From: an uncultured Gammaproteobacteria bacterium
Lineage (GTDB): Bacteria; Pseudomonadota; Gammaproteobacteria; Steroidobacterales; MnTg04
DNA: 64,000 bases
Reading direction: 5' to 3'
Assembly (NCBI GenBank): GCA_964568075.1
Contig: CAZMOM010000015.1
Span: 7,385-71,384, forward strand
A program made the position numbers and the translations under genes. The first letter of the stretch is position 1, and every line of letters begins with the position of its first letter. The notes beneath the pieces are model-generated. The model had not been told where the DNA came from. It searched no databases and saw nothing but the letters and a program-made list of their open reading frames with translations. This document shows, piece after piece, positions 3-64,000 of this stretch.

Positions 3-470
3 ATCTATCACTCGAAACATGTCGAACAGGAAGCGGCGCTGGCGGATGACCGAGCCTTTTTCGAGACGAAGTGCAGTTATTGTCATTCGCTGCAACGCGT
101 TTTCCTGATACCGTTCGACGAAGAGAGCCGGCGCCATGTCGTTGAGAGAATGCAGAATCGCGCCGGAACGGACTGGTTGAGCGATACCGACGCGGAACGA
201 ATCCTGTCCTACCTGGCGAAAGCGACGCCTGAGGTACAGGCGCCGGAGCGGCTGGACGGGCGCAGCGGTCAGGAAATCCTGAAGGCACGGTGTACAGCCT
301 GTCACACCCTGGAACGTATCTTTCTGGAGCGTGATGAACATCCGGGCGATTCTGAAATGTGGACACATATTGTGGGGCGGATGAGGGGCAAGGCGCCGCA
401 ATGGATCAGCGAGGGCGAAGCACAAAGCGTCATTGAATATCTCGAGACAATTGAGCCACAGACCCGGTAG
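3..470 (+). CDS. c-type cytochrome domain protein, 5' end outside window (two tandem haem-binding repeats)
   Basis: Frame-3 reading frame is open from the window edge to TAG at 468-470. It holds two ~55-aa tandem repeats, each with CxxCH (CSYCH at nt 72-86, CTACH at nt 291-305) followed by L-x-R-[VI]-F-L ... [VG]-R-M ... [IV]-[LI]-x-Y-L. Confidence 0.7.
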   Translation: MYHSKHVEQEAALADDRAFFETKCSYCHSLQRVFLIPFDEESRRHVVERMQNRAGTDWLSDTDAERILSYLAKATPEVQAPERLDGRSGQEILKARCTACHTLERIFLERDEHPGDSEMWTHIVGRMRGKAPQWISEGEAQSVIEYLETIEPQTR

Positions 471-48408: not shown

Positions 48409-50664
48409 CTACGCCATGAACGGCTCCGCACGTTTGATAAGCTCCTCCAGGCCAGGCTCGTTCTGGTTTCGCGGTTTGCCGGGATGAATGATGGCGACCT
48501 GACAGAGTTCGGCTGCCTCGACGAGGTCTTTGAAAGTACCGGCATCGAGGTCCTTGATGTACGCCTGTTTGTTTTCATCGTAGGCAAACATTCGGTCGTT
48601 TTTGTTGGTGCACTCATCACAGGTGGTGCAGCGGGGCGTATCGATGTAAGGGTCGTCTGAAACCGCAGGCAAAGCAGCCTCTGCAGGGGTATCCGGTTCC
48701 CTCGCGTCCTCCGTGACCGCTGGCACGGTCACGGCCTCGACGGGCTGCGAATGATCCGCCTGCGCAGGCTCTGCCCTGATCGCCTGGATCTGTTTCTCTT
48801 TTTCTTTTTCCCAGGCGATCCGTTCCTTCAAGAGCAATGCAGACGCGTACGAATTATTGACGCCGCCCTGCTCCTGAAGCACACGCCAGCGATCGCCGCA
48901 GCGGCGCGCAATGCGAATCAAATTGTCGTCAACGACCAGCCGCCGCAAAATATTGCTGCCATTGACGACCGACACATAAGGAACCTTGCCGAAAGTCTCG
49001 TCGTCCGCCAGATCCAGGTAATCTGCGACCGGTAGCATATCGTCGTTCCAACTTTCTCTCGGGGCCGATGCAAAGTATTCGCTATACCGCGAATCGGTGA
49101 CCGCAAAGTCGACCAAGGTAAAGGCCTGCTCCTCGGTGACCGTTTGCAGGTCTTCATCCTCGAAGCGAAGTTCCCTGTGCGGCCAGGTTGCCTCGATCTC
49201 GGGATTGCTGCTTATGCTAAAGCGATCCGCCAGGCCGGGGCCGGCCGCCGGATCGTAACTGAATGCCGGAAACACCCGCGACTCCATTGCCGCGGCGGCT
49301 ATCAAGTAAGCCGGAAGGCCCGTCGTGGGTTGGGTGCGGCCTGAAAAAATGCTGAAGATCGCCGGCCCGCTGAATTCCAGCCCTTTCCTTATCTCTTCTT
49401 TTTTCTGGTACAGATTGGAACTTGCAGACTGCAGCACATAAGCGTTGCCCGGCGCAACGAATGTGCTGGCCAATTGCCGCACGAACCCGTCGTGATGCAG
49501 TTTCCTGTCGACAGACGCCGGCTCGCCAAGCACATCGCTCACTTGCAACAAAACCTTCATCGGCAGGTCTGACGATGCGATCTCCATCAACCGCGCCGTA
49601 TCCCGCAAATCACACTCACGCTCATCCAGACAGATCAGATACGACGGAAACAGCGCCAGGTCGGCCGGTGCCAGAGCCTGCACGCCGAAGCGATCGAAAT
49701 AGGCTGCGTGCTTCCGTTCACGATAGGCGTTCTCGCATTCGAGTTCTGCGACAGCGACGGCCTTGATGACTTTCGCTATTTCGGGCAGGCGATCGTTATA
49801 GGCTTTCAGCGCGCCAGACGCGCTGTTGAAGTCGAATCGATACTGCGTGCCATCTTGCCTGCGTTTCTCGCGACCGCCCGGCGCAAAAAATTTCTGTGAC
49901 TCCAGAACCGAAAGTGCGGACCCGACTCGGCGCCGCCGGTCAGCCGGCAACCTGTTTTGTGGAGTTGCGTCATTCAAAAGTTCGGACATCAGCTCGAAAT
50001 CAAACGCCTCCTGGTAACGCCTGCCCAGCGTTTGCTTGATTCTTTTCGGTGTTCGCGCCCGCCCGGATTTCAGGTCGTCGACCTTGAGAATGTTGCGCAG
50101 TCTGATGATCAGCGTGTTAATTTGTTCGAACGATTTTCGTGTGCGCCGTGCTTCAACGTTCGCCCAGGCGTGCTGCAGCAACAACGAGGGCAAGCGGTCG
50201 TCACAGTCGACAACCCGTCCGTCTAACCTGAGCGCGAAGCGCGCAGTGGCCAGACTGTCTTTGAGTAACTCGGCCTCGGACTTCTCACATTCGGCCAACA
50301 GAGACTTCTCCGCATGATCCCAGAGCCTGGCCAGGGATGATTCGAAGCCATCGGCAACCAACCCGCGCATTCTGGTCTCGAGCCGAAGCACATGGTGGCG
50401 AAGTTGTGCACCTGCGTTGCCCTCAGGCGCAATCTCCCGCAGCAGTCGACCCATCACACCCGAAAGCGTATCCAGGAACGCGTGGCTATCGCCGTCATCG
50501 AGCAGTATCAATGGATAGTCGTAGCGCAGTTTTGACAGCTGTTGATATGGCGCCAGCAGTGCCGGGCAAATATCGCGCGGCATGGTATCCCCGACTTCGC
50601 TGTCACGGCGCTTACCGGTCAGGTGGAAGTGAATCATTTCCTGCATTTCCACGCTCACGGCCAT
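48409..50664 (-). CDS. 751-aa protein: uncharacterised N-terminal region + degenerate PFOR TPP-domain-like region + C-terminal single-cluster ferredoxin
   Basis: The ATG abuts the korB stop (TAGATG). aa ~338-600 align by eye to the C-terminal part of the PFOR encoded at 59041-62613 in this window, but lack GDG...N. The C-terminus is CTTCDEC...C (C-x2-C-x2-C...C). Confidence 0.8.
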   Translation of the reverse strand: MAVSVEMQEMIHFHLTGKRRDSEVGDTMPRDICPALLAPYQQLSKLRYDYPLILLDDGDSHAFLDTLSGVMGRLLREIAPEGNAGAQLRHHVLRLETRMRGLVADGFESSLARLWDHAEKSLLAECEKSEAELLKDSLATARFALRLDGRVVDCDDRLPSLLLQHAWANVEARRTRKSFEQINTLIIRLRNILKVDDLKSGRARTPKRIKQTLGRRYQEAFDFELMSELLNDATPQNRLPADRRRRVGSALSVLESQKFFAPGGREKRRQDGTQYRFDFNSASGALKAYNDRLPEIAKVIKAVAVAELECENAYRERKHAAYFDRFGVQALAPADLALFPSYLICLDERECDLRDTARLMEIASSDLPMKVLLQVSDVLGEPASVDRKLHHDGFVRQLASTFVAPGNAYVLQSASSNLYQKKEEIRKGLEFSGPAIFSIFSGRTQPTTGLPAYLIAAAAMESRVFPAFSYDPAAGPGLADRFSISSNPEIEATWPHRELRFEDEDLQTVTEEQAFTLVDFAVTDSRYSEYFASAPRESWNDDMLPVADYLDLADDETFGKVPYVSVVNGSNILRRLVVDDNLIRIARRCGDRWRVLQEQGGVNNSYASALLLKERIAWEKEKEKQIQAIRAEPAQADHSQPVEAVTVPAVTEDAREPDTPAEAALPAVSDDPYIDTPRCTTCDECTNKNDRMFAYDENKQAYIKDLDAGTFKDLVEAAELCQVAIIHPGKPRNQNEPGLEELIKRAEPFMA

Positions 50665-51633
50665 CTACTCCACCGGCCAGATCGTAAATTTGTCCAGCTC
50701 TTCGTTCAGCCCTTTCCTGATGAGCGCCGGCGTATACAGCCGATCCGGCTTGCGAAGATCCTCATAGCAGGGCACATCCGGATTGCGGTAAATGATGCCA
50801 ACCGGCAGGTGCTCGCTGGTGCCGACAATTCGTCTGGCCTCGACAAGATCGGCAGGGTCGTGCTGATCCTGATGCCGGTAGACGCGCGACAGCGCGGGCG
50901 ATAGCTCGATGCCGTTTTCGTGGGTCAGTATCAGCAGGCGATCCGGATTTTGTATGCACGGCTCCCAGCGATCCTCCAGGAACTCGGGACATCGCTGCAG
51001 GATACGTATAAAGGAGAATCCGTGATGCTTGTGCGCCGCGGAGATAATTTTGTAAAGCAGCTCCGGAATCCAATCGACAACCTGGGCGACGAAAGACAAA
51101 TTCGACATACCGAGTGTCGCCTGCAAGGGATCAAACGCCTCGAGATCCGAGCCACGCGGTGTCGTGTTGCTGCGCGTTCCTTTCGGTGACGTCGGTGATA
51201 CCTGATTCTTGGTCAGACCATAGATGTTGTTGTCGTGCATCATGACGGTCATGTTCATGTTGTAACGCGTCGCATGTACCCAATGCGCGGTGCCGATACT
51301 GCAGCAATCACCGTCGCCCATATTGACAAATACGTGCAGGTCCGGCCGGCGCATTCTAATGCCTTCCGCAACAGGGAGCGCGCGACCATGCAGCCCGTGG
51401 AAGCCGTAGGTGCCCATGTAGTGAGGAAAGCGGCTGGAACAGCCGATACCCGAAACAAATACGGTTTTCTCCAGCGGCAGTTGCTCATCGCGGCAAACCC
51501 GCTGCACGGCGGCAAGGATGGCGAGATCGCCGCAACCGGTACACCAGCGCGGCACACGCCCTGCGTAGTCCTCGAGGCTGTGTTCTTCCTGGCCTGCGTG
51601 TCGTAAGAATTCCGTAGCCCGAACTACCATCAC
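50665..51633 (-). CDS. korB: 2-oxoacid:ferredoxin oxidoreductase beta subunit (TPP-binding)
   Basis: ..WCTGCGDLAIL.., ..GIGCSSRF.., and the TPP motif ..NMGDGDCCSIG...N. 4-bp overlap with korA. Confidence 0.92.
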   Translation of the reverse strand: MMVVRATEFLRHAGQEEHSLEDYAGRVPRWCTGCGDLAILAAVQRVCRDEQLPLEKTVFVSGIGCSSRFPHYMGTYGFHGLHGRALPVAEGIRMRRPDLHVFVNMGDGDCCSIGTAHWVHATRYNMNMTVMMHDNNIYGLTKNQVSPTSPKGTRSNTTPRGSDLEAFDPLQATLGMSNLSFVAQVVDWIPELLYKIISAAHKHHGFSFIRILQRCPEFLEDRWEPCIQNPDRLLILTHENGIELSPALSRVYRHQDQHDPADLVEARRIVGTSEHLPVGIIYRNPDVPCYEDLRKPDRLYTPALIRKGLNEELDKFTIWPVE

Positions 51634-53510
51634 TGCAACCTCTCACGAATTACGCGTTCTACCGTGCCGGGTTTTATCGGTTGTTCACCCACTTCGCCCC
51701 AGCAGTCGATATCGACCAGACAACGTGCCCGCAACAACCAGGCGAGATTCGAGTAGCGGCGATTTTCCTCATCGATCAATTCGTCATCCAGAGAATCCGC
51801 CCAGTTATTCTCGACCGCCAGGACCTTGTCGAATCGCTGTAGTATCTCTTTGATGCCGGACGCCAGCGGCTGCAGGATTCTGAGGTGCAACGACGACACC
51901 TTGTGGCCATCGGCGCGTACCCTTTGTACGGCCTCTTCGATCGCGCCCCGTGTGCTGCCCCAGCCGACGACGAGCAGTTCACCCTTGTCATCACCAAACA
52001 CCGGCGGCGTTTTGATAGTTTTTTGCAGCGCCGCGAGCTTCAGACTACGGTGCCTGATGCCTTCCTTGTTGATTTGCAGGTCGTAGGCTACGCAGCTCCG
52101 GCGATCATGTGCGAGGCCCGTCACTGTGTGCATACCGTTTGGCTGCCCTGGGATGACACGCTGCCGCTGGCCGCTGCGCTGATCCCAGTCGTACGGAAGA
52201 TCTCCATTGACCACGGGGCTTTGATCGACAGGCGGCGCCAGCCAGTCGTCGCTGGCCTCCGGTCGCGGAAACGGTTGTTGCGCTGTTGCGAGACTGGCAT
52301 CGGACAGCAGCACAACGACTGTGTTGAAGGTCTCTGCTATTTTTCGGGCGGTGATGACTGAATAAAAACAGTCCTCGATATCGCTTGCGGCCATAACCAC
52401 TTTCGGGGCATCTCCGTGACTGCCGAAACAGGCGGTCAGCAGGTCGCCCTGTTCGGCTTTCGTCGGTTGCCCGGTGGACGGGCCACCACGCTGGACATCG
52501 ATCACCACCAGCGGTATCTCCGCCATTACGGCAAGACCGATACATTCCTGCTTTAACGAGTAACCCGGCCCCGACGTGATCGTCAACGCACATTTGCCCG
52601 CATAGGATGCGCCAATCGCGAACGCACATGCAGCGATCTCATCCTCAGCCTGGTGCACGACGCCGCCGACCTTTTCGAAAACGTCGCACAGATAATGTGA
52701 TGCCGAGGTGGCCGGCGTGATGGGGTACATCGCACAGACTTCCATACCCGAGGCCATGACACCGAGAGCCATAGAAGTGTTTCCGTTGACAACGATGTTC
52801 GGTTCCTTGGGCGGCGTCGCCTGTATCTTGAACTTGATGTCCAGGTTGTGCTCGGCCCATGCGAAACCCGCGTTGAGCAGTTTTTGGTTGGCGGAGATGA
52901 CAAGATCGCCTTTCTTGCCGAATATGAATCGGATCTGCTCGCGGGCCGCATCCATGTCCAGACTGTAAACACTGCTCAGCAGGCCGAGTACAAACATGTT
53001 CTTGCCGCGGCGAGCATCGCTGACGACCTTGAGGCACTCGACTTCCATGGGAATCTCGTAAACCTTGAATCCGCGCTCGATCAGTTCGTCGTACACGCTG
53101 ACGTACGACGCCGCAATCGACGGGCCATCGTCGCTGCGCCACTTGTCTTCGAGGAGAATAATGCTGCCGGGTTTGAGTTCGTCGGCCCGCAATCGACCGA
53201 GAAGCACCTGATCATTGAATGCCACCGTGAGATCGACTTCGTCGCCGCCATTGGTTACCCGGTGGTTTGCTACGCGAATTCGATTTCCGCTGGCCCCGTC
53301 GATGCTGCGTGCCGGCGGCTGAATTTCAGCCGGGATGATTTCCACGGTCCAGATTCCGTAGCCCAGCCGTGCCGCGATAGCGCCAAAGGACTGACCGCAT
53401 TTCTGCGCCCCTTCACCTGAGTCGCTGAGTATCTCGACGATGTGTTCGTCAATCTCCATCGCCGGCTTCCTGCCCGGCGTTGTCATCCCTTTCTGTCTCG
53501 TTACCGGCAT
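51630..53510 (-). CDS. korA: 2-oxoacid:ferredoxin oxidoreductase alpha subunit
   Basis: 626 aa, typical KorA (..GEGAQKCGQSF.., ..AMYPITPATS.., ..AEDEIAA..). An alternative start at 53459 (ATG with AGGAAG upstream) is possible. Confidence 0.92.
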   Translation of the reverse strand: MPVTRQKGMTTPGRKPAMEIDEHIVEILSDSGEGAQKCGQSFGAIAARLGYGIWTVEIIPAEIQPPARSIDGASGNRIRVANHRVTNGGDEVDLTVAFNDQVLLGRLRADELKPGSIILLEDKWRSDDGPSIAASYVSVYDELIERGFKVYEIPMEVECLKVVSDARRGKNMFVLGLLSSVYSLDMDAAREQIRFIFGKKGDLVISANQKLLNAGFAWAEHNLDIKFKIQATPPKEPNIVVNGNTSMALGVMASGMEVCAMYPITPATSASHYLCDVFEKVGGVVHQAEDEIAACAFAIGASYAGKCALTITSGPGYSLKQECIGLAVMAEIPLVVIDVQRGGPSTGQPTKAEQGDLLTACFGSHGDAPKVVMAASDIEDCFYSVITARKIAETFNTVVVLLSDASLATAQQPFPRPEASDDWLAPPVDQSPVVNGDLPYDWDQRSGQRQRVIPGQPNGMHTVTGLAHDRRSCVAYDLQINKEGIRHRSLKLAALQKTIKTPPVFGDDKGELLVVGWGSTRGAIEEAVQRVRADGHKVSSLHLRILQPLASGIKEILQRFDKVLAVENNWADSLDDELIDEENRRYSNLAWLLRARCLVDIDCWGEVGEQPIKPGTVERVIRERLQ

Positions 53511-53520
53511 TGTTCAGTTC

Positions 53521-55023
53521 CTATGCCACACGAATACGAACACGCGATCGTTCCGTCGAGTCGATTCCGAATATCCTGGCTTCGCTGCCGTTTTGCGCTC
53601 GCTTATAGACCGCTTCGGTGTCGCGTATACCGAGATAGGCCTTCATGCTGTGCGCCGCCTGCCGCCCTGTCCCCATTGCCAGAATTACTGTTGCGGCGCC
53701 AGTCACGATATCGCCGCCGGCGTATACGCCTGCCATCGAGGTGGCGAGATTGTCATCGACCTCTATGTAGCCCCATTTGTTTAGTGCGATCTTTGACGTC
53801 TGGCCGATAATCGGATTGGCATTGGTGCCGATCGCATAGACCACCGTGTCGACTTCGAACTCGAAGTCACTTCCTTTTATCGGTACCGGACGGCGCCGGC
53901 CCGAATCGTCGGGTTCACCGAGTTCCATGCGCTGGCAGCGCATCGCGCGCACATTACGCTCGCCATCGCCGAGTATTTCAACCGGCGCGGTAAGCCACTC
54001 AAACTGTATGCCTTCCTCTTCGGCATGATCGATTTCTTCGTCCCTCGCAGGGCTCTCGTTTCGTGTGCGGCGATAGACGCAGTACACCTGCTCAGCCCCG
54101 GCCCGCAACGACACACGTAAGGCATCCATGGCGGTATTGCCGGCGCCGATCACCGCAACGCGTTTGCCGAGGCCCAGCGGAGTGTCGTAGGCGGGAAATT
54201 CTGTGGCGCCCATCAGGTTACAGCGGGTCAGCAGTTCGTTCGCCGAAAGCACACCATTCAGCGATTCGCCGCCGATTCCCATGAAACTCGGGTAACCCGC
54301 CCCGGTGCCGATGAAAACGGCGTCGAAGCCGAGTTCGTCCAGCATTTGTTCAATGGTGAACAACCTGCCGACCAGTGTATTGCACTCGATCCTGACGCCA
54401 AGCCTCACCAGATTCTCGATCTCACCATCGAGCACGTCGTTCGGCAAGCGAAATTCGGGGATGCCGTAGCGCAATACGCCGCCGGCCTGATGCAACGCTT
54501 CGTAGATCGTGACGTCGCAGCCGGCTTTGGCCATGTCCGCTGCGCAGGCCATCCCCGCGGGCCCCGAACCGACGATGCCAATTTTGAGCCCATTGGGTTC
54601 TATATAAGGCGTGTTATGCCACCCCTCGGCGATAGCCATGTCGCCAACCCAGCGTTCGAGCCGGCCGATGGCCACCGGCTCCAGCCTGTCGCCGACCGGA
54701 CATACTCCTTCGCACTGATCTTCCTGCGGACAGACTCTTCCGCAGATCGCCGGCAGCAAAGTAGACTCGGTCAGGATGTCATAGGCGCCGCGGTAGTCTT
54801 TTTCGCAAATCTTGACGATAAATCCGGGAATATCGATATTGACCGGGCACGCCGGGACACACAGTGGATTCGGACAAACGAGGCAACGCTCGCATTCGAT
54901 CAGTGCATCCTCGAGGCCGTAGCCGAGCGTCACCTCATCGAAATTTCTGGCCCGCACCGCCGGCTCCTGGGCCGGCATGCGGGCGCGGTCCTGCGGAATA
55001 TTCCGTATGGTTTTTTTTGCCAT
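53521..55023 (-). CDS. NfnB/GltD-like NAD(P)H-dependent FAD/Fe-S oxidoreductase (glutamate synthase small-subunit family)
   Basis: N-terminal Cys clusters (..CERCLVCPNPLCVPACPV.., ..CGRVCPQEDQCEGVCP..), the dinucleotide motifs GIVGSGPAGMA and VIGAGNTAMD, and ..GVYAGGD... Confidence 0.9.
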   Translation of the reverse strand: MAKKTIRNIPQDRARMPAQEPAVRARNFDEVTLGYGLEDALIECERCLVCPNPLCVPACPVNIDIPGFIVKICEKDYRGAYDILTESTLLPAICGRVCPQEDQCEGVCPVGDRLEPVAIGRLERWVGDMAIAEGWHNTPYIEPNGLKIGIVGSGPAGMACAADMAKAGCDVTIYEALHQAGGVLRYGIPEFRLPNDVLDGEIENLVRLGVRIECNTLVGRLFTIEQMLDELGFDAVFIGTGAGYPSFMGIGGESLNGVLSANELLTRCNLMGATEFPAYDTPLGLGKRVAVIGAGNTAMDALRVSLRAGAEQVYCVYRRTRNESPARDEEIDHAEEEGIQFEWLTAPVEILGDGERNVRAMRCQRMELGEPDDSGRRRPVPIKGSDFEFEVDTVVYAIGTNANPIIGQTSKIALNKWGYIEVDDNLATSMAGVYAGGDIVTGAATVILAMGTGRQAAHSMKAYLGIRDTEAVYKRAQNGSEARIFGIDSTERSRVRIRVA

Positions 55024-56100
55024 TCAGGTCAAACCTTTCTTCCAGTTGTCCAGCGCGCGCGCCTCGTCGCTACGGAAGCGTCCCAGCCGACTCATCAGGT
55101 CATCGAAATCGACCTTGTGGGCATCGAACTCCGGACCATCGACACAAGCGAATTTGATTTCGTCACCCACCGTTACCCGGCAACCACCACACATCCCGGT
55201 ACCATCGACGACGATCGGATTCATGCTGACGATGGTCTCAATCTTATACGGCCGCGTCGTCTCGGCACAGGCCTTCATCATGATCGGTGGACCGATCGCA
55301 ATGACCCGATCGACATCGGCGTGTTTGTTGAGCGCCGCTTCCAGACCCAGCGTCACCCGACCTTCGATACCGGCCGAACCGTCATCGGTACAAATGATGA
55401 GTTCATCGCAGTACCGCTCGAATTTTTCCTGCCAGAAAATCAGCTCTTTGGAGCGAAATCCGACCACACCGATCACATAGGCGCCGCTGTCCTTGAACGC
55501 CCGAAGTTGCGGGAATATCGGGGCAACGCCAAGGCCGCCGCCAACACAGACGACCTTTTTGGTGCCGAGTTCACCGGGATATCCCATCGGACCGACGAGA
55601 GCATGAAAATGTGTACCTGCCTGACAACGCCGCTGCATCTCAAAAGTGGATTTGCCGACCGCCTGGACAACGAGCGTAATCGTGCCCTTGTCGCGATCGA
55701 AATCAGCGATGGTCAGCGGTATGCGTTCCCCACGCTTGTGCAAAATGACGATGACGAACTGGCCGGGTTTCGCCGCTTTGGCGAGTAACGGCGCAGCGAC
55801 TTCGAGGAGAAACGTGATATCCGAGAAATCTTCGCGGGCGACAATTTCGAAGCCGCTGTCGTCGTCCGGCTCTACGGACTCCCGGCATGCCCGGCTACTC
55901 CGCAACTGCTCCCGCGCGTCGGTAATTTTCCGTCGCAATGCGGGCAAGACGGTGTCTCGTGCCACTTTAGCCTCTTCCAAATCCTGAGTGTGCAGCGAGC
56001 GGCGCAGGTCATACCCCAGCGCCCCGCGGAGCGTCCGCGGCACCGCAACCTTCACCCACCAGGTCTGGTCACGCTTGAACAGGTATTTGGCGTCTTCCAT
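55024..56100 (-). CDS. NfnA/SudB-like ferredoxin-NADP reductase subunit carrying an 83-aa foreign N-terminal extension (integrase arm-domain-like)
   Basis: From aa 84 onward it matches the NfnA pattern (..AKPGQFVIVILHKRGERIPLTIADFDRDKGTITLVVQAVGKST.., and a C-terminal ..CGGCRV...FACVDGPEF.. 2Fe-2S site). No start codon exists at the homology boundary. aa 1-62 resemble a tyrosine-integrase N-terminus. Confidence 0.85.
   Translation of the reverse strand: MEDAKYLFKRDQTWWVKVAVPRTLRGALGYDLRRSLHTQDLEEAKVARDTVLPALRRKITDAREQLRSSRACRESVEPDDDSGFEIVAREDFSDITFLLEVAAPLLAKAAKPGQFVIVILHKRGERIPLTIADFDRDKGTITLVVQAVGKSTFEMQRRCQAGTHFHALVGPMGYPGELGTKKVVCVGGGLGVAPIFPQLRAFKDSGAYVIGVVGFRSKELIFWQEKFERYCDELIICTDDGSAGIEGRVTLGLEAALNKHADVDRVIAIGPPIMMKACAETTRPYKIETIVSMNPIVVDGTGMCGGCRVTVGDEIKFACVDGPEFDAHKVDFDDLMSRLGRFRSDEARALDNWKKGLT
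55915..56100 (-). mobile_element. remnant of a tyrosine-integrase 5' end (arm-type DNA-binding / DUF6538-like N-terminus) fused in frame to the nfnA-like gene
   Basis: MEDAKYLFKRDQTWWVKVAVPRTLRGALGYDLRRSLHTQDLEEAKVARD.. follows the pattern [YL]-x-K/R-R-x-x-T-[YW]-[YW]-x-[RK]-[IV]-x-VP-x-x-L-R...G...[IL]-x-x-SL-x-T-x-D-x-x-EA that I recall for integrase N-termini. No integrase catalytic domain follows. Confidence 0.5.
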
Positions 56101-56148
56101 CCGTTCTGGCCTGCCTGCCGGATTTCCGCTGGGCCGTGCCCAAAAACC

Positions 56149-56253
56149 TGTACCTTTTCGTATCGTACGTTGTGTACCTTACGATGCGTACAATCGGGAA
56201 CGGCCTGTTGGTTTCCGATTTTGTACCTTTCCCACCATGACCCAAACTGTACC
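56149..56253 (+). repeat. four same-orientation TGTACC(TT) repeats upstream of the chimeric gene
   Basis: TGTACCTT at 56149, 56173 and 56222; TGTACCGG at 56248. The second copy lies in the loop of a 9-bp hairpin (56159-56167 / 56180-56188). Confidence 0.6.
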
Positions 56254-56554
56254 GGTTGAATATACGCATATTCCGCATGTGCCCAATCGAAGACCGCCCA
56301 GACAGTGGCGCGTCGAAACAAGAGCAAAATGGCGCTCTGGCCCCGAAAGCGGAGATTTGGCGGGCTGTTTTCGACCAGGTCGATCAGGTCTGCTTACGAC
56401 CCTAAACGGACATTCGTCACCAGAAGGCAACAAGCTCTCACGTTACACCCCGCGCTTCGATTTGACGTCGATCGAACTGAGTGTTCTAGTCCTTAATTCG
56501 AGCAAATTTGCTCTTTCGACTCTGGGCCGTCTACTAATCGTAATAACCCTGTGC

Positions 56555-57223
56555 ATGAATCGTCTCGTTTCACTGTCTTCTGTCGCGCTAGTGCTTGCAA
56601 GCGGCGTCGCGGGGGGCCAGGACAATGGAAGCTCAGAATTCAGCGTGTATCAGGTCGACTCCGCGGGCTCTGACATTCGATTGTTGATACATCGAGCTGG
56701 CGTTCTTTCCCGGTTCGGACATAGCCATGTAATCTCGGTCGGACAGCTAGTCGGCACGATCTATGTGCACCCCGACCTCGAGCAGTCACGCTTTGAGTTG
56801 GAAATTCCGGTGCATGGATTGATCGTGGATGACCCACTTCTTAGACGCGAGGAGGGGGACGAATTTTCCACCGAACCATCGAAACATGATATTGCCCGCA
56901 CACGCAGCAACATGCTCGGCAAGCGGGTACTAAAGGCCAAACAGTATCCGATCGTCAAGCTCACTGGGACAGGGCCCAGGGGCGACGCGCCGGAGTTCGT
57001 GCTCGAATTGACCATTGAGCTTCTGGATAATGTCGTCGAATTACGGGTTCCATCTACTGTGCGGCTGGACGGGGATATATTGGAAGCGACGGGCGCCTTT
57101 CGGCTCAGCCATAGTGACCTGGGCATACGGCCATTCAGCGCGATGTTGGGAGCGCTTCGTGTCGCCGATGAAATAGATTTCAAGTATCGCATCCGAGCGC
57201 AACGGATACGGGCGAAGGACTAG
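56555..57223 (+). CDS. YceI-family periplasmic protein
   Basis: ATG at 56555 gives the signal peptide MNRLVSLSSVALVLASGVAGG. YceI-like ..FGHSHVI.. and a beta-barrel pattern follow. The 189 upstream in-frame codons of the ORF-track frame are rejected. Confidence 0.7.
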   Translation: MNRLVSLSSVALVLASGVAGGQDNGSSEFSVYQVDSAGSDIRLLIHRAGVLSRFGHSHVISVGQLVGTIYVHPDLEQSRFELEIPVHGLIVDDPLLRREEGDEFSTEPSKHDIARTRSNMLGKRVLKAKQYPIVKLTGTGPRGDAPEFVLELTIELLDNVVELRVPSTVRLDGDILEATGAFRLSHSDLGIRPFSAMLGALRVADEIDFKYRIRAQRIRAKD

Positions 57224-57507: not shown

Positions 57508-58815
57508 CTAAAACTCGAGATACCGGGTTGGCCTTTCTCTGAACCATTTGGTGACCACCCACTTTTCACCCTGCTCAACAGGATCGCCGCCATGCAGGCT
57601 GCGGTCGTCCACCTGGCCATTCTCGAGACAATTCCTGAACCACAGGGTGCTGCCAGCCAAGGGCGGTACCGTCAGGTTCAATCTTGGAAAACTGGTACCG
57701 CCTCCCGCCGACGGCGAAGCCAGATAGGTCACAGCGGAGACCGTTCTCTGCCCACCATCCTCCATGAACCCTTGGGATACGGTGAGCTTTGGATCGAAAT
57801 AATCGACGTGAGGCCGATAGCACTCTCCGGGGGCGTAATGCAGAATCGACATCGGCTCGGAAAACATCAGATCCTCACCGGTTTGACGGATAATTTTCAG
57901 CTCAACGCAGCGACCGATGATGTCGACTATCCCAAACGGGAGATAGGTGGACATATTGGTACGAACGTCCGAGACCATACCGCCCCTTTGGCTGTCGGGA
58001 TCGATCACATTTGCGCGCTTTAAAAAGGGGCGTGAGAGAAAGATGAGGTACGCACAATCGACGACATTCAAGACGTCATTGAACAGGGTGATGGCCGGGT
58101 CTGCACTCACAACCTGGTGATCAACCATCGGTGATTCTGGATAGAGTGAAAAGGACGCCCCCAATTCGCTCCTCTCTTCAGGGAGTTGCGGGGGCCGGGC
58201 AGCCTGTACGCCTTGATACGGCACCAGCAGCGTCTCGGCAAACGGATATTGCGCACCGGCGGCGCGCTGCAACCAGTGCACGGCCTCTTGCTCCGCGCCC
58301 TCGCCGCCCCAGCCCTGCAATAGACACCAACCCAGGTTGAAACTCGAAACCGGATCACCGCCCTGAGCGGCTCGCCGAAGGCAGTCAATGGCCATGTTTC
58401 TGCTTGATGCATGCTGCATAGCCAGGTATCCAACGGCCCTGAGCGCGAGAACAAAGTGCGCTTCTGCCGCCATCAGGAGTAAGTCGCTGATGAGACTATT
58501 GTTGGCGGGTCCCCGTTGCGACTTATACAACAGTTCCGCTTTGCGGTAGGCCGCCTGGCTGGAACCTCCTTCGACAGCCCGATCGTAGTGCGCCAGCGCC
58601 GCGACATAATCTTGCGGAATTCCCAGGCCCTTTTCGTAACAATGCCCGAGCGCGTCCAGCGCATCTGGAAGACCTTTGGCGCTCGCCTGCAGCAACCAAT
58701 GGATCATGCCTTCGACGTCTCTGTTCTGAAGGCAGATCTGGCTCAATAGAAACTGCGATTCGAGCTGACCGCCTTCGGCCTTGGCACGTAGTTGTTGGAT
58801 TTGCATCGTAGACAT
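57508..58815 (-). CDS. Sel1-repeat + prolyl 4-hydroxylase-like 2OG-Fe(II) oxygenase
   Basis: N-terminal Sel1/TPR-like repeats (..LGHCYEKGLGIPQDYVAALAHYDRA..). The C-terminal P4Hc has H-x-D (..YRPHVDYF..), a distal His (..SLHGG..) and ..KWVVTKW... Confidence 0.8.
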   Translation of the reverse strand: MSTMQIQQLRAKAEGGQLESQFLLSQICLQNRDVEGMIHWLLQASAKGLPDALDALGHCYEKGLGIPQDYVAALAHYDRAVEGGSSQAAYRKAELLYKSQRGPANNSLISDLLLMAAEAHFVLALRAVGYLAMQHASSRNMAIDCLRRAAQGGDPVSSFNLGWCLLQGWGGEGAEQEAVHWLQRAAGAQYPFAETLLVPYQGVQAARPPQLPEERSELGASFSLYPESPMVDHQVVSADPAITLFNDVLNVVDCAYLIFLSRPFLKRANVIDPDSQRGGMVSDVRTNMSTYLPFGIVDIIGRCVELKIIRQTGEDLMFSEPMSILHYAPGECYRPHVDYFDPKLTVSQGFMEDGGQRTVSAVTYLASPSAGGGTSFPRLNLTVPPLAGSTLWFRNCLENGQVDDRSLHGGDPVEQGEKWVVTKWFRERPTRYLEF

Positions 58816-59040: not shown

Positions 59041-62000
59041 TTAGCCGGCGGGCTGAAATTTCGCAGGTTCCTGCTTGGCCATGTGCTCGTAGGTCTGCCA
59101 GCGTAACTCCACGAGTTCCTGTGCACTCTGCATTAACTTTTCCGCTTCTTCTGGATTGGTTCGCGTCAAAATCTTGTAACGCATCTCGTTGTAAGCGTAT
59201 TCCTTGAGTGGAATGCTCGGGCGTGGCGAATCCAGGACCAGCGGTTTCTTGCCCGCTGCACGCAGCGCCGGGTTGTAACGAATCAGCGGCCAGTAGCCGC
59301 TGGCCGCCGCCAGCTTTTGCTGTCTGAGGCCATCGGCCATGTCATAGCCATGGGCGATGCAGTGGCTGTAGGCGAGAATCAGCGAAGGACCCTGATACTC
59401 CTCCGCCTCACGCATGGCGAGCAGAGTCTGCTGTGAATTTGCCCCCATCGCGACCTGGGCGACATAGACGTTACCATACGAGATCGCCTGCAAGGCCAGA
59501 TCTTTTTTGCCGCTGCGTTTACCGGCGGATGCGAACCGGGCGGATGCGCCCAGCGGAGTCGCCTTGGACATCTGACCGCCCGTATTGGAATACACCTCGG
59601 TATCGAGCACCAGTACGTTGACATTGCGGCCGCCGGCCAATACATGATCCAGTCCACCGGCTCCGATGTCATAAGCCCAGCCGTCACCGCCCACCAGCCA
59701 GATACTGCGGCGGACCAGGTGATCGACGATGGAAAGCAACGCGGCAGCTTTATCGTTATGGTCCTGGTCGCACATTCGACGCAACTGGATTTTGAGGCGT
59801 GCGACTCTTCGCCGCTGGGCTCGAATCTCGCTGCCGACGCGCTGACTGGCGTTGACGAGTTCATCGGCGAACTGCGCACCGATCTGCAGCTCAAGTTCCA
59901 TGACGAGCCGCTTCGCGATTTTCATGTGGTGGTCGGCGGCGATGCGCATACCGAGACCAAACTCGGCGTTGTCCTCGAACAGGGAATTCGACCAGGCTGG
60001 TCCGCTGCCCTCCCTGTTCTTACTCCACGGAGTGGTCGGCAGGTTGCCGCCGAAGATGGACGAACAACCGGTGGCATTGGCGACCAGCAGTCGCGGACCA
60101 AACAGCTGTGACAGAAGCTTTATATAAGGAGTCTCGCCGCAGCCGGCGCAGGCGCTGGAGAATTCGAACAGCGGCTCCAGGAACTGGGCGCCGCGAACCG
60201 AGGAAAAATCCACTTTCGCACGATCGCTGAACTGAAGGCTCTCGAAAAACTCGACATTGGTCTTGCCCTGTTCGAGCAGCGGGGCCTTATCGGTCATATT
60301 GATCGCGCGCACCTGTTCATCGTCGGGACTTCGCACGGGGCAGGCATCGACACAGAGGTTGCAACCGGTACAGTCCTCCGGATACACCTGCAGCGTATAG
60401 CGCGTCTCGGGAAAACCGCGGGCGCTGATCGGCGCGGATTGAAATCCCTGCGGCGCATCATCCAGTACGCTCTCGTGATAAAACTTGGCGCGGATGACGC
60501 TGTGCGGGCAGACGAAGCCGCAATTACCGCACTGTATGCATAGATCTGGCTCCCAGGCAGGTACGCGGTCCGAGACATTGCTCTTCTCCCAGCGTGCTGT
60601 GCCGCTGGGGAAAGTGCCGTCGACCGGCAGCTTGCTGACGGGCAGGTCGTCGCCGTGGCCGCGCATCATTGCTGCCGTGACCTCGCGCACGAACCGGGGC
60701 GCCTCGCTCGGCACAACCTCGTCGAGCGGACGCGTGCTGCTGATGGTGCCGGTGATCTCGACTGCGCACAGATGATCGAGCGCCGCATCAACGGCCGCGA
60801 AGTTCTGATCGATGACGGTTTGACCCTTGGCGCGGTAGGTTTTTTCGATCGATTTCTTGATCTGCCGGATAGCTTCAGCACGCGGCAGCACGTCGGACAG
60901 GGCGAAGAAGCAGGCTTGCATGACCGTGTTGATCCGTTCGCCCATACCGGCTTCCCGCGCGACGCTGGAGGCATCGATAACATGGAACCTGATACCACGA
61001 ATCACGATCGCTTCCTGCACCGGCTGCGGCAGCTTGTCCCAGACCTCGTCCGCTGAATAAGGACTGTTGAGCAGGAATACCGAGCCGGCGGCAGCGTTTC
61101 GCAGCACTTCGATTTTTTCGATCAGGTTAAATTGGTGACAGGCGATGAAGTTCGCCGACTGGATCAGATAGGGCGCGTGGATCTGCTCGGGCCCGAAGCG
61201 CAGATGCGAGACAGTCTGTGAACCTGATTTCTTCGAGTCGAAGACGAAGTAGCCCTGGCAGTAGAGATCCGTATTCTCGCCGATGATCTTGATGCTGTTC
61301 TTGTTGGCGCCGACCGTACCATCGGAACCCAGGCCGAAGAACAACGCCCGGGTGACCTCATCGCTCTCGATCTCGAATTTCGGGTCGTAGTCGAGGCTCG
61401 TGTGGGTAACGTCGTCGTGGATCCCGATCGTGAAATGATTTTTTGGTTGCGGCTTGCCGAGTTCATCGAAAATCGCCTTGACCATGGCCGGCGTGAATTC
61501 CTTCGATGACAAGCCATAGCGACCACCGATTACCTTTGGCATCGACTCCAGGCGGCCGTCGCCCGCCGCTTCGGCCAGTACCGTAACCACGTCCTGGTAT
61601 AGCGGCTCCCCGCTGGCCCCGATTTCCTTGGTTCGATCGAGCACCGCGATCGATCGGGCCGCACCGGGAATAGCCGCCAGCAGGTGCTCGGCCGAGAACG
61701 GGCGATAAAGTCTGACGTTGACCAGGCCCAGCCCCTGTTCCGGTAACGCGTCGATCGTCTGCATCACGGTGTCGGCGCCGGAGCCCATGAGAATGATGAT
61801 GCGCTTCGCCTCCGGGTCGCCGTGGTAGTCGAACAGCCCGTACTGCCGGCCCGTCAGTTCGGCGAAGCGGTCCATCGTCTGTTGCACGATTCGCGGAGTC
61901 ACTGCGTAGAACCGGTTGACGCTCTCACGCGCCTGAAAGTAGACGTCCGGGTTCTGAGCGGTGCCGCGGATGAACGGATTATCGGGGTTCAGCGCACGCT

Positions 62001-62613
62001 TCCGGTGCTCATAGACCAGTTCCGCGTCGATCATCGCGCGTATTTGATCGACCGACAGCAAGTTAATTTTGCTGATCTCGTGCGAGGTTCGGAATCCGTC
62101 GAAGAAATGAATGAACGGAACGCGGGCCTCGAGCGTCGCGGCATGACTGATCAGGGCCAGGTCCTGGGCGGCCTGCACGGATGAAGCCGCGAGCAAACCG
62201 AAACCCGTCGTGCGGGCGGCCATGACATCCTGGTGATCACCGAAGATGGACAAGGCCTGCGCCGCCAGGGACCGCGATGCGACATGGAAAACCGCCGAGG
62301 TCAGTTCCCCCGCGATTTTGTACATATTCGGCAGCATCAGCATCAGGCCCTGTGAGGCCGTGAAGGTCGTGGTTAATGCACCGGTCTGTAACGCCCCGTG
62401 CGCGGTACCTGCGGCGCCACCCTCGCTTTGCATCTGAATGATGTCGGGGACATGACCCCAGATATTCTCCTTACCACTTGCGGACCATACGTCGGCCAGC
62501 TCAGCCATCGGTGAAGAGGGCGTAATAGGATAGATCGAGCAAATCTCACTGACCGAGTAGGCGACCCGCGCGACCGCCTCGTTGGCATCGAGTGTGCGTT
62601 TCTCGGTCATCAC
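59041..62613 (-). CDS. nifJ: pyruvate:ferredoxin (flavodoxin) oxidoreductase, single-polypeptide type
   Basis: 1190 aa. Domain order I-VII with two 4Fe-4S motifs (CIQCGNCGFVCP, CTGCNLCVDACP) and a TPP motif (GGDGWAYDIG...NTGGQ). Confidence 0.95.
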   Translation of the reverse strand: MMTEKRTLDANEAVARVAYSVSEICSIYPITPSSPMAELADVWSASGKENIWGHVPDIIQMQSEGGAAGTAHGALQTGALTTTFTASQGLMLMLPNMYKIAGELTSAVFHVASRSLAAQALSIFGDHQDVMAARTTGFGLLAASSVQAAQDLALISHAATLEARVPFIHFFDGFRTSHEISKINLLSVDQIRAMIDAELVYEHRKRALNPDNPFIRGTAQNPDVYFQARESVNRFYAVTPRIVQQTMDRFAELTGRQYGLFDYHGDPEAKRIIILMGSGADTVMQTIDALPEQGLGLVNVRLYRPFSAEHLLAAIPGAARSIAVLDRTKEIGASGEPLYQDVVTVLAEAAGDGRLESMPKVIGGRYGLSSKEFTPAMVKAIFDELGKPQPKNHFTIGIHDDVTHTSLDYDPKFEIESDEVTRALFFGLGSDGTVGANKNSIKIIGENTDLYCQGYFVFDSKKSGSQTVSHLRFGPEQIHAPYLIQSANFIACHQFNLIEKIEVLRNAAAGSVFLLNSPYSADEVWDKLPQPVQEAIVIRGIRFHVIDASSVAREAGMGERINTVMQACFFALSDVLPRAEAIRQIKKSIEKTYRAKGQTVIDQNFAAVDAALDHLCAVEITGTISSTRPLDEVVPSEAPRFVREVTAAMMRGHGDDLPVSKLPVDGTFPSGTARWEKSNVSDRVPAWEPDLCIQCGNCGFVCPHSVIRAKFYHESVLDDAPQGFQSAPISARGFPETRYTLQVYPEDCTGCNLCVDACPVRSPDDEQVRAINMTDKAPLLEQGKTNVEFFESLQFSDRAKVDFSSVRGAQFLEPLFEFSSACAGCGETPYIKLLSQLFGPRLLVANATGCSSIFGGNLPTTPWSKNREGSGPAWSNSLFEDNAEFGLGMRIAADHHMKIAKRLVMELELQIGAQFADELVNASQRVGSEIRAQRRRVARLKIQLRRMCDQDHNDKAAALLSIVDHLVRRSIWLVGGDGWAYDIGAGGLDHVLAGGRNVNVLVLDTEVYSNTGGQMSKATPLGASARFASAGKRSGKKDLALQAISYGNVYVAQVAMGANSQQTLLAMREAEEYQGPSLILAYSHCIAHGYDMADGLRQQKLAAASGYWPLIRYNPALRAAGKKPLVLDSPRPSIPLKEYAYNEMRYKILTRTNPEEAEKLMQSAQELVELRWQTYEHMAKQEPAKFQPAG

Positions 62614-64000
62614 ATCCGGGCCTCGCCGGCATCAGGTTCATCGATCATCTCGATCGCATGGCAGGGACACTGTTCATAACAAACGGCGCACCCCGTGCAC
62701 AGATCGAAGTCGAAGCGATAGCGCTTGCCGGGGCCGAGCTTGATGATCGCGCTTTCGGGACACGCGCCATAACAGCCATCACACTCGAAACAATTGCCGC
62801 AGGACAGGCAACGCTTCGCCTCGAACAGGGCATCTGCCGCCGACAGATTCTGCATGATCTCATCGAAACCACTTTGACGATCCGCTACCGGCAATCGTTC
62901 CTGCTCTACCTGCGGCGCCGACGTGCGATACCAAAGCTGCAGCTTCTCGTGCCCGATCAACGTGTGCCGGGGTGAGCGGCGGTAAGTCGTGCCATTGAGA
63001 TAAGCGTCAATATGGCGTGCCGCCTGTTTGCCATGACCGACGGCGATCGTCACGGAGCGCTCGCTCGGGACCATGTCGCCACCGGCAAAAATGCCTGCAT
63101 GACCGGTCATCATGTTGTCGTCGACAATCACGCTGTGGTCGGGCTTGAACTCGATGTCCGGTACTGCTTCCAGGAAAGCCGTGTCAGTATCCTGTCCGAC
63201 GGCCAGAATCAGTGAATCAGCCTCCAGGGATTCAAATTTTCCGGTCGGTTGCGGACGGCCGCTCTCGTCGAGTTCCATCACCTCAACCTTGAAGGTCGAC
63301 CGGTCGATCTCCTTGATTGTGCGCAACCAGTTGATCTTGATGCCTTCTTCCAGCGCTTCGTCCGCTTCGAAGTCATGGGCCGGCATGCTGGTGCGATCGC
63401 GCCGGTAAATTATCATCGCCTCATCGGCGCCGAGCCTTTTGGCGGTTCGGGCCGCGTCCATGGCCGTGTTGCCACCACCGTAAATTGCGACTCGACGGCC
63501 GATCTTCGGCGGGTCCCCCTCGCTGGTACTGCTGAGAAAACTGACGGCATCGAGAATCTTGCCGGCATCCCGCGTCGGGATATCGATCTTCTTGCTGATA
63601 TGCGCGCCGACCGCAACGAAGACCGCATCGAATCCGCCCGCCTCCTGTTCGGCGAGAACATCCTCGACGCGATGGTTCAGCGTGATCTTTACGCCCGCAT
63701 CCTCGATGCGCTCAATTTCAGCAAGCAATTCATCGCGCGGCATCCGGTAAGCCGGGATGCCAAAATGGATCATGCCACCCGGTACCGGCCCGGCCTCGCG
63801 AATCTCGACCGCATGTCCCATGCCGGTCAGGTGATAGGCGGCCGAGAGTCCGCTCGGCCCGGCGCCGACGATCAGGATCCTTTTGCCGCTACTGCTATCC
63901 GACTTCGAAAATCTCCAGCCTTTTTCCAACGCCAGGTCGCCGAGAAAGCGCTCTACTGCATGGATGCTGACCGCGCTGTCGGTGAACGCGCGATTGCAGA
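62610..64000 (-). CDS. GltD-like NAD(P)H oxidoreductase with C-terminal 2x[4Fe-4S] ferredoxin domain; 5' end beyond window
   Basis: GAGPSGLSAA and GGGNTAMD dinucleotide motifs. C-terminal CLSCGNCFECDGC..CP and CTGCAVCYEQCP. The frame stays open upstream of the TTG at 63929 to the window edge (..NRAFTDSAVSIHAVERFLGDLALEKGW.., typical GltD N-domain). 4-bp overlap with the PFOR start. Confidence 0.88.
   Translation of the reverse strand, partial: CNRAFTDSAVSIHAVERFLGDLALEKGWRFSKSDSSSGKRILIVGAGPSGLSAAYHLTGMGHAVEIREAGPVPGGMIHFGIPAYRMPRDELLAEIERIEDAGVKITLNHRVEDVLAEQEAGGFDAVFVAVGAHISKKIDIPTRDAGKILDAVSFLSSTSEGDPPKIGRRVAIYGGGNTAMDAARTAKRLGADEAMIIYRRDRTSMPAHDFEADEALEEGIKINWLRTIKEIDRSTFKVEVMELDESGRPQPTGKFESLEADSLILAVGQDTDTAFLEAVPDIEFKPDHSVIVDDNMMTGHAGIFAGGDMVPSERSVTIAVGHGKQAARHIDAYLNGTTYRRSPRHTLIGHEKLQLWYRTSAPQVEQERLPVADRQSGFDEIMQNLSAADALFEAKRCLSCGNCFECDGCYGACPESAIIKLGPGKRYRFDFDLCTGCAVCYEQCPCHAIEMIDEPDAGEARM

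Follow-up and report, generated by a model that had tools for sequence, protein, structure and literature searches.

We examined a stretch of 64,000 nucleotides (nt) of DNA, referred to below as the window, from an uncultured gammaproteobacterium (GTDB lineage Gammaproteobacteria; Steroidobacterales; MnTg04; assembly GCA_964568075.1, contig CAZMOM010000015.1, positions 7,385 to 71,384 of the forward strand). The gene studied here is the first of an operon, and its single open reading frame (ORF) encodes a protein in which a DUF6538 domain is joined by a linker to a small subunit of the NfnA type, predicted to bind flavin adenine dinucleotide (FAD), NAD(P)H and a [2Fe-2S] cluster (Table 1). The stop codon TGA of this ORF overlaps the ATG of the next operon gene, and upstream of the ORF lie three copies of the motif AAGGTACA and a weaker fourth copy. 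A first reading of the window, made from its letters alone (the sequence-only reading), had described the protein as an in-frame chimera of an integrase N-terminus and an NfnA-like enzyme.

Table 1. Positions of the fusion gene, its parts, the upstream repeats and the other operon genes in the window, and of fusions of the same domain at other loci (L numbers). aa, amino acids; OFOR, 2-oxoacid:ferredoxin oxidoreductase.
Feature	Position	Strand	Remarks
DUF6538-NfnA fusion ORF	55024..56100	(-)	358 aa + stop; ATG start at 56100
DUF6538 domain	55912..56085	(-)	aa 6-63; PF20172; homologue of the N-terminal tyrosine-integrase domain
Linker	55852..55911	(-)	aa 64-83; variable, acidic, flexible
NfnA-type FAD/NAD(P)H-binding and [2Fe-2S] small subunit	55027..55851	(-)	aa 84-358; PRK06222, PF10418, 5jca_S
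AAGGTACA repeat, proximal (site C)	56149..56156	(-)	AGGTACA 56149-56155, starts at -55 from the ATG
AAGGTACA repeat, middle (site B)	56173..56180	(-)	AGGTACA 56173-56179, -79; 24 nt from site C
AAGGTACA repeat, distal (site A)	56222..56229	(-)	AGGTACA 56222-56228, -128; 49 nt from site B
Weaker fourth copy, CCGGTACA	56248..56253	(-)	GGTACA starts at -153
NfnB/GltD-like large subunit	53521..55023	(-)	Fer4_20 + Pyr_redox_2; second operon gene
KorA, OFOR subunit	51630-53510	(-)	third operon gene
KorB, OFOR subunit	50665-51633	(-)	fourth operon gene
unk751	48409..50664	(-)	conserved fifth operon gene; 751 aa, no Pfam match
DUF6538-OFOR gamma fusions	L081 6001-7119; L082 4379-5350; L089 3001-3912; L090 3001-3909		
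DUF6538-IscS fusions	L083 2016-2753; L084 1665-2186; L085 1219-1740; L092 874-1734; L093 1593-2165		

The sequence-only reading had placed the beginning of the NfnA-type homology at aa 84, and we kept the junction there because the alignments with the NCBIfam model PRK06222 and with the small subunit of Pyrococcus furiosus NfnI (5jca_S) both begin at this residue, each covering aa 84-355. The match to PRK06222 (sulfide/dihydroorotate dehydrogenase-like, NfnA/SudB type) extended over model positions 2-273 of 281 with 370.4 bits (cut-off 220), and that to 5jca_S had an E value of 1e-90. The AlphaFold model of the full-length protein, superposed by Foldseek on 5jca_S, gave a template modelling (TM) score of 0.91, normalised by target length, at 51% identity. 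The [2Fe-2S]-binding domain PF10418 was assigned by Pfam to aa 295-331, and its cysteines C304, C307 and C319 were invariant in 68 full-length homologues. Judging from the full-model match to a hidden Markov model, the [2Fe-2S] domain and the neighbouring gene for an NfnB/GltD-like partner, aa 84-358 are an NfnA/SudB-type subunit. The protein thus resembles NfnA/SudB of NADH-dependent ferredoxin:NADP+ oxidoreductase (5jca_S, 4ylf_A) end to end and in its gene neighbour, and differs from it in the 83-aa N-terminal extension and in an operon that is coupled to korAB instead of standing alone; electron bifurcation is putative here. Public records name the fusion protein only as a flavin reductase or a sulfide/DHOD-like protein, and since these names cover the enzyme half only, the putatively regulatory half is invisible in the annotation.

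The N-terminal extension had been likened to the arm-type DNA-binding region of tyrosine integrases with a DUF6538-like pattern, and profile searches agreed with this. Pfam assigned PF20172 to aa 6-63, spanning model positions 1-59 of 60, with 41.6 bits (E 1e-10) for the 83-aa piece alone and 37.7 bits for the whole protein (gathering cut-off 27). A profile of the domain had 823 matches at E <= 0.001 among 1.84 billion representative proteins. The best of them, after fragments of the fusion itself, were proteins of 384-488 aa that matched at their first ~65 residues. Nine proteins of this kind (344-469 aa) were tested, and in most of them PF20172 was accompanied by PF00589 and by core-binding domains of the SAM-like type. 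When eight DUF6538 integrases were compared with the window by tblastn, they matched it at 55903-56100 only, with 38-45% identity. Their core-binding and catalytic domains had no match anywhere in the 64 kb, the catalytic domain PF00589 was not found by Pfam in the fusion protein, and the linker passes straight into NfnA with no core-binding domain between. Clearly, the N-terminus of the fusion protein is homologous to that of integrases, and the lack of an integrase core or catalytic domain, which the sequence-only reading had noted for the vicinity, holds for the whole window. A scan of viral contigs with the domain profile gave no confirmed match.

Domains linked to enzymes, in the window and at the other loci described below, form a subtype of their own. 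They have a common signature, KYLFKR..WWVK.AVP..LR..LG[YF]DLR, which integrases do not have, and their identity within and between groups is 38-75%, while to integrases it is 25-53%. The N-terminal arm-binding domains of integrases bind arm-type repeats and fold into three beta-strands with a single alpha-helix (PMC8138268). The model of the DUF6538 domain alone, with a predicted local distance difference test score (pLDDT) of 88.8, has strands at residues 7-10, 13-19 and 31-35 and two helices, the short one at 22-28 and the long one at 41-65, i.e., a strand-strand-short helix-strand-long helix topology. By this model, which shows a small, strand-rich domain followed by a long helix, a likeness in fold to the integrase arm-binding domains is possible.

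The linker, described before as acidic, is variable and flexible as well. In the full-length model the block means of its pLDDT are 69 for aa 61-70 and 55 for aa 71-80, and aa 70-75 score less than 50; a poorly ordered linker next to a confidently folded domain fits a tethered module. The length of the linker differs among homologues, and the frame stays open from the methionine of DUF6538 into NfnA in all of them. One residue of this otherwise variable linker, Cys72 (window 55885-55887; RACR, aa 70-73), is nearly invariant in a motif RAC(R/K); it is kept in at least 90% of the NfnA fusions and is absent from the fusions of the domain to other enzymes, OFOR gamma and IscS, that are described below. 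Cys72 could be a redox-sensitive or a cluster-related residue.

As had been claimed, the DUF6538 part supplies the start codon of the NfnA-type gene, the ATG at 56100, in one continuous ORF. The claim that no ATG, GTG or TTG lies at the boundary holds for codons 67-90, which contain none of the three, and the sole internal candidate start, missed by the sequence-only reading, is an in-frame TTG just upstream, at codon 66 (55903-55905), preceded by GGGAG. Orthologues without the fusion start normally, with MSNFEIV, and their methionine aligns with codon 81 of the window ORF, which here is GAC. Considering the TTG with its GGGAG and the weak Shine-Dalgarno sequence before the ATG at 56100 (…CCAGAACGGATG), one could suppose that translation of NfnA starts internally, at codon 66 or at a non-canonical codon near 84, and that the DUF6538 frame lies outside the enzyme. 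We regard this as very improbable, given that the frame is continuous from the DUF6538 methionine to NfnA in all homologues despite the variable length of the linker, and that codon 66 is not conserved as a leucine. A dual product, the full-length protein along with one from the internal start, is possible.

The sequence-only reading had attributed the fusion to a deletion or illegitimate recombination at an element integrated in this genome. Searching ~5.8 billion proteins, we obtained 8000 scored relatives. The top 120 clusters (built at 90% identity) share 67-98% identity with the window protein, and almost all of these are 356-381 aa long, have 98-100% query cover and carry PF20172 as well as PF10418; length and junction of the fusion are the same in at least 120 clusters. 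In a scan of GTDB, with one genome per species, 14 species representatives (L001-L014) encoded the full fusion, with identities of 63-84%. Apart from one metagenome-assembled genome (MAG) that bears the label Deltaproteobacteria and one that bears the label Myxococcota, these are MAGs of Woeseiaceae, unclassified Gammaproteobacteria and "Chromatiales". A further 66 loci, which ranked next and belong to Beta- and Alphaproteobacteria, Chloroflexi, Acidobacteria and other groups, contain unfused orthologues with 61-71% identity, and the DUF6538 profile found no copy of the domain within 6 kb of them. Apparent N-terminal matches at some unfused loci (tblastn query starts 24-67) were dismissed as spurious, their upstream frames being devoid of DUF6538. 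Loci with and without the fusion have the operon genes in one order, nfnA-nfnB-korA-korB-unk751, the fused gene always being first, and genes upstream of the operon vary between loci. As the same operon occurs with and without the fusion, the fusion is a derived state on a pre-existing operon, and its distribution indicates an old, conserved state of a clade that consists mainly of Woeseiaceae and related Gammaproteobacteria.

In support of that, the DUF6538 part is under purifying selection. The median ratio of nonsynonymous to synonymous substitution rates (dN/dS), calculated for 14 coding sequences whose synonymous sites are close to saturation, was 0.17 for aa 6-63, 0.55 for the linker (aa 64-83) and 0.10 for the NfnA part (aa 84-358), and the identity of homologues to the window protein was 68% for aa 6-63, 47% for the linker and 82% for aa 84-358. 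In a 39-sequence alignment of the domain 14 residues are invariant, and 13 of them (R10, W14, K17, V20, P21, L28, G29, R33, S35, L36, T38, A44 and R48) remain so in the 68 full-length homologues. The homology with integrase N-termini and the GAC at the position of the ancestral methionine codon would suit a recent accidental chimera, in which a functionless integrase stub donates a promoter, a ribosome-binding site and a start codon. Such an event is nevertheless highly improbable: the same fusion is present in at least 120 clusters and 14 species, its domain is under selection, the repeats upstream of the gene are conserved while the intergenic DNA around them is not, and neither tRNA genes nor remnants of an integrated element were found in the 64-kb window. 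The idea of a local, recent rearrangement in this genome therefore had to be abandoned. As an observation that would refute it, the sequence-only reading had named a conserved N-terminal extension, with no integrase homology, in orthologues from unrelated genomes. We did find the extension as a conserved domain in orthologues elsewhere, but the homology to integrases is present in it. The alignment of orthologues that it had suggested showed a normal start in unfused relatives and, speaking against a recent event, the same extension in front of the same operon in fused ones.

The repeats adjacent to the gene, which the sequence-only reading had mentioned, are real. AGGTACA occurs three times as an exact copy in a stretch of 80 nt, each time in gene orientation; the whole window contains 8 copies on both strands versus 2.1 expected, three of the 8 being those upstream of the fusion, and the Poisson probability of at least 3 copies in 200 nt at the background rate of the window is ~8e-8. 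Short direct repeats next to a gene are also the arrangement of int arm-type sites (PMC2951348). At 15 of 15 NfnA-fusion loci, there are 2-4 copies of AGGTACR within 200 nt upstream, all in gene orientation, in upstream regions that have diverged almost entirely apart from the A(A/C)GGTACA copies. Aligned, 53 sites gave the consensus G-W-A-A-G-G-T-A-C-A-G, and the spacing of A, ~49 nt, B, ~24 nt, C recurs in at least 10 loci. In contrast, in the 400 nt upstream of unfused orthologues, GGTACR was found on neither strand in 54 of the 66 loci and as a single copy in the other 12, as compared with 2-6 copies at fused loci. In 1.03 Mb of collected sequence, two or more AGGTACR were clustered inside 120 nt at 25 places, 23 of which are at DUF6538 genes.

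The position of the proximal copy varies. It lies at -7 to -11 in L002-L008 and L012, i.e., at the position of the Shine-Dalgarno sequence, whose AAGG it supplies, 54-60 nt upstream in the window and five other loci, and ~100 nt upstream in L013. From its proximal repeat to the ATG (56101-56148), the window is ~40 bases longer than L001, the closest of the species loci. An extra single CAGGTACA was seen outside the main cluster, ~0.5 kb upstream, in several loci (L001, 5471; L002, L003, L006 and L008, ~-490 to -500; L009, -613). We also considered the motif as a promoter element (TGGTACAAT, extended -10-like in low-GC loci, i.e., those low in guanine plus cytosine) and rejected this, as it would leave almost no leader and the copies of high-GC loci have no final T. 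A search of 55800-56800 against Rfam found no RNA family.

We examined other settings of the domain because the clade of fused NfnA alone represents one evolutionary event. In Woeseiaceae-type MAGs, a DUF6538 domain of this subtype is joined to an OFOR gamma subunit (PF01558). The gene of this fusion is the first of a second OFOR operon of gamma, alpha and beta subunits and an ~800-aa protein, to which the two longer loci add an FeS/Fer4_21 protein and a large PFOR-like gene. The AAGGTACA motif was found close to the start in all four of these loci (L081, L082, L089 and L090), L081 having also a reverse-orientation copy. It was absent upstream of the unfused OFOR-gamma orthologue of Ca. Reidiella endopervernicosa (L091 1869-2792 (-)). 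At L091 a divergent gene for a LysR-type regulator occupies the place where fused loci have the repeats, as if the fused domain replaced a conventional regulator.

A third partner is an IscS/NifS-type cysteine desulfurase, encoded on contigs of 33-36% GC. Each of the five IscS-fusion loci has the motif as an inverted pair, TGTACCTTA ... GGTACA, no more than 45 nt from the start; TGTACCTTA, which is the motif in reverse complement, lies 21-42 nt before the annotated start, depending on the choice of the start codon, and GGTACA ~27 nt further downstream. These contigs contain almost no other GGTACA, and their upstream genes differ. At the unfused iscS-iscU locus L094, a protein of the same DUF6538 subtype is encoded by a divergent gene (3-227 (-)) that runs off the contig end, and the common intergenic region (228-482) contains three copies of AAGGTACA; as judged from this layout, it is a classic regulator-target arrangement. 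A protein with Fer4_20 (GltD/NfnB-like) is a possible fourth enzyme partner, as the 118-aa fragment P0153 consists of DUF6538 followed by an apparent start of Fer4_20 (E 0.004). Some other database fragments (P0141, P0158, P0159 and P0162) end in adaptor-like tails (…SLIHI, …SYTHLRAHETR, …CLLYTSPSPRD), and P0134 and P0157 seem to be chimeras; where a fragment ends in these libraries should not be taken for a real domain junction.

From these results we consider it probable that the domain is a domesticated integrase arm-type DNA-binding domain, retained with its cognate sites, and that NfnA acts through it as an autoregulating "trigger enzyme". In this reading, the gene encodes a real, translated two-domain protein in which DUF6538 is tethered by a flexible linker to the NfnA-type subunit. 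The DUF6538 subtype would recognise the AAGGTACA direct repeats as sequence-specific double-stranded DNA, and the fusion NfnA would bind the promoter or leader DNA of its own operon, feeding back on transcription in a PutA-like manner. The repeats would lie after the likely promoter region and before the start codon, or would cover the ribosome-binding site. The feedback would be negative and possibly modulated by the assembly or redox state of the flavin/[2Fe-2S] subunit, an input of the kind known from PutA. Many int promoters overlap arm-type repeats, which gives negative autoregulation (PMC2951348), and it is because of this precedent that we favour the negative sign. The proposal of the sequence-only reading that a DNA-binding stub has been co-opted for autoregulation through the repeats is thus favoured by the co-occurrence of the motif and the domain; the binding itself is a prediction.

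Several observations weigh against an autoregulating trigger enzyme. Foldseek comparison of the domain model with the PDB gave no match with E below 1, a profile of the domain found nothing among PDB sequences, and hhalign found nothing against the N-terminus of lambda Int, which leaves binding of DNA by DUF6538 a prediction. In a metagenome scan with the integrase P0164, one close locus, L086, was found, adjoining a tRNA cluster as island integrases do; at this one close integrase relative whose DNA was examined, the GGTACA repeats are absent. We discarded L086 as a test of arm sites, about which, devoid of these repeats, it says nothing. The NfnA and OFOR-gamma fusions share one lineage, and hence are not fully independent. 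A sigma-70 scan of 55950-56650 found no promoter. Lastly, all the Woeseiaceae-type copies near the gene are sense-oriented, as are all 53 sites of the motif matrix, and the proximal copy overlaps the Shine-Dalgarno position in eight loci, which suits a mechanism at the RNA level too.

In such a mechanism the domain would bind the AAGGUACA repeats in the mRNA leader, the proximal copy on the ribosome-binding site, and would autoregulate translation. The sense orientation and the AAGG supplied by the proximal copy in L002-L008 and L012 speak for it. We find it improbable even so, as one of the two copies is antisense at IscS-fusion loci and L081 has its reverse copy, and such orientation independence fits double-stranded DNA; the inverted copy at the IscS loci in particular argues for recognition of DNA over RNA. 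Furthermore, the homologues of the domain belong to DNA recombinases, and the nearest copy in the window is 55 nt from the ATG.

The domain could also function with no contact to DNA, for example as a docking or assembly module for Fe-S/redox complexes, some other lineage-specific regulator being the one that binds AAGGTACA. DNA binding being predicted for a domain that matches no solved DNA-binding structure, and every partner being an Fe-S or redox protein (NfnA, OFOR gamma, IscS and possibly a GltD-like one), this deserves more weight than recognition of RNA, though it is still unlikely. The motif and the domain occur together in four gene contexts and in lineages of 33-36% and ~57% GC, also where the domain is a separate divergent gene, and the motif is missing from unfused orthologues. 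Moreover, in integrases, the homologous domain occupies the arm-binding position (PMC8138268).

One known system to compare with the proposed trigger enzyme is the arm-binding domain of tyrosine integrases of the heterobivalent kind, such as lambda Int, Tn916 Int, IntS of KplE1 and the DUF6538 integrases. It shares with the DUF6538 integrases (proteins with PF20172 and PF00589) the N-terminal homology described above. It differs from integrases in that it is a fusion with neither a core-binding nor a catalytic domain, att core or tRNA, in that the partner is a metabolic enzyme, and in the distinct signature of the enzyme-linked subtype. It also differs from the characterised arm-binding domains in that arm-site binding of DUF6538 itself was described in no paper found, literature searches for DUF6538 and PF20172 having returned none.

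Fusions of an enzyme with a DNA-binding domain that regulate the genes of their own pathway are known as trigger enzymes, such as PutA, BirA, NadR and RbkR. The protein described here is like PutA in having an N-terminal, in this case predicted, DNA-binding domain on a flavoenzyme and multiple candidate operator copies in its own control region, and, as in trigger enzymes in general, the state of the enzyme could set the level of expression. The domain is covalently fused to the enzyme in one continuous, conserved and selected ORF, as in that class. Unlike in PutA-type trigger enzymes, the domain is of the integrase arm type and not a ribbon-helix-helix or winged helix; in addition, its enzyme part is one of several subunits that make up an Fe-S/flavin complex, and its function is deduced from comparative genomics. 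A parallel in idea is offered by AP2/ERF transcription factors, whose domains are thought to derive from DNA-binding domains of integrases or endonucleases of mobile elements. In both cases, an integrase-associated strand-plus-helix domain would have been exapted for the control of transcription, but AP2/ERF factors belong to another kingdom and family, and the likeness is one of idea.

As to the origin, the 5' end of int, together with its arm-type sites, would have come from an integrated element, and the capture would predate the divergence of the whole fused family; the cassette may then have spread to other genes. Such an ancient capture is plausible, because the int 5' end and arm sites lie at one end of many elements and are already autoregulatory there. 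A wider interpretation, which we put forward tentatively and hold to be slightly short of an even chance, is that a subfamily of integrase arm-binding domains was domesticated, the domain and its AAGGTACA operator repeats forming a portable regulatory cassette that was attached time and again to the leading genes of Fe-S/redox operons (NfnA, OFOR gamma, IscS and possibly a GltD-like gene) and that also occurs as a stand-alone divergent regulator.

Some features of the gene neighbourhoods may be added. The fifth operon gene, unk751, is conserved across phyla in fused and unfused operons alike, with 33-71% identity, and the ~800-aa protein of the OFOR-gamma operon (weak Fer4_13 match) is encoded at the equivalent position. 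Upstream of the operon, both the window (59041-63929 (-)) and L001 (535-5420) contain a gene for a 1190-aa PFOR (nifJ-type) with a Pyr_redox_2/4Fe-4S gene before it. The two are immediate neighbours of the fused operon in L001; in the window they are separated from it by a gene for a Sel1/2OG-Fe(II) oxygenase (57508-58815) and by an unassigned gene at 56564-57223 (+).

Fusions of enzymes with DNA-binding domains and the domestication of domains of mobile elements are known principles; the integrase arm-type domain on NfnA, OFOR gamma and IscS with a common candidate operator appears to be undescribed. The uncharacterised DUF6538 gains a first functional lead, namely a specific candidate DNA motif and the prediction that aa 1-83 bind AAGGTACA. 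If the proposed autoregulation is true, the capture of an integrase arm-binding domain with its sites, and their subsequent attachment to enzymes, would be a route to new regulators. If the cassette is indeed portable, the enzymes would be stationed at the promoters of their own genes and make transcription depend on their redox or assembly state, and the hosts of such systems would be abundant marine-sediment and low-GC planktonic bacteria. For the Woeseiaceae MAGs and related Gammaproteobacteria, our results suggest a mode of control of a widespread operon of the 2-oxoacid oxidoreductase/Nfn type.

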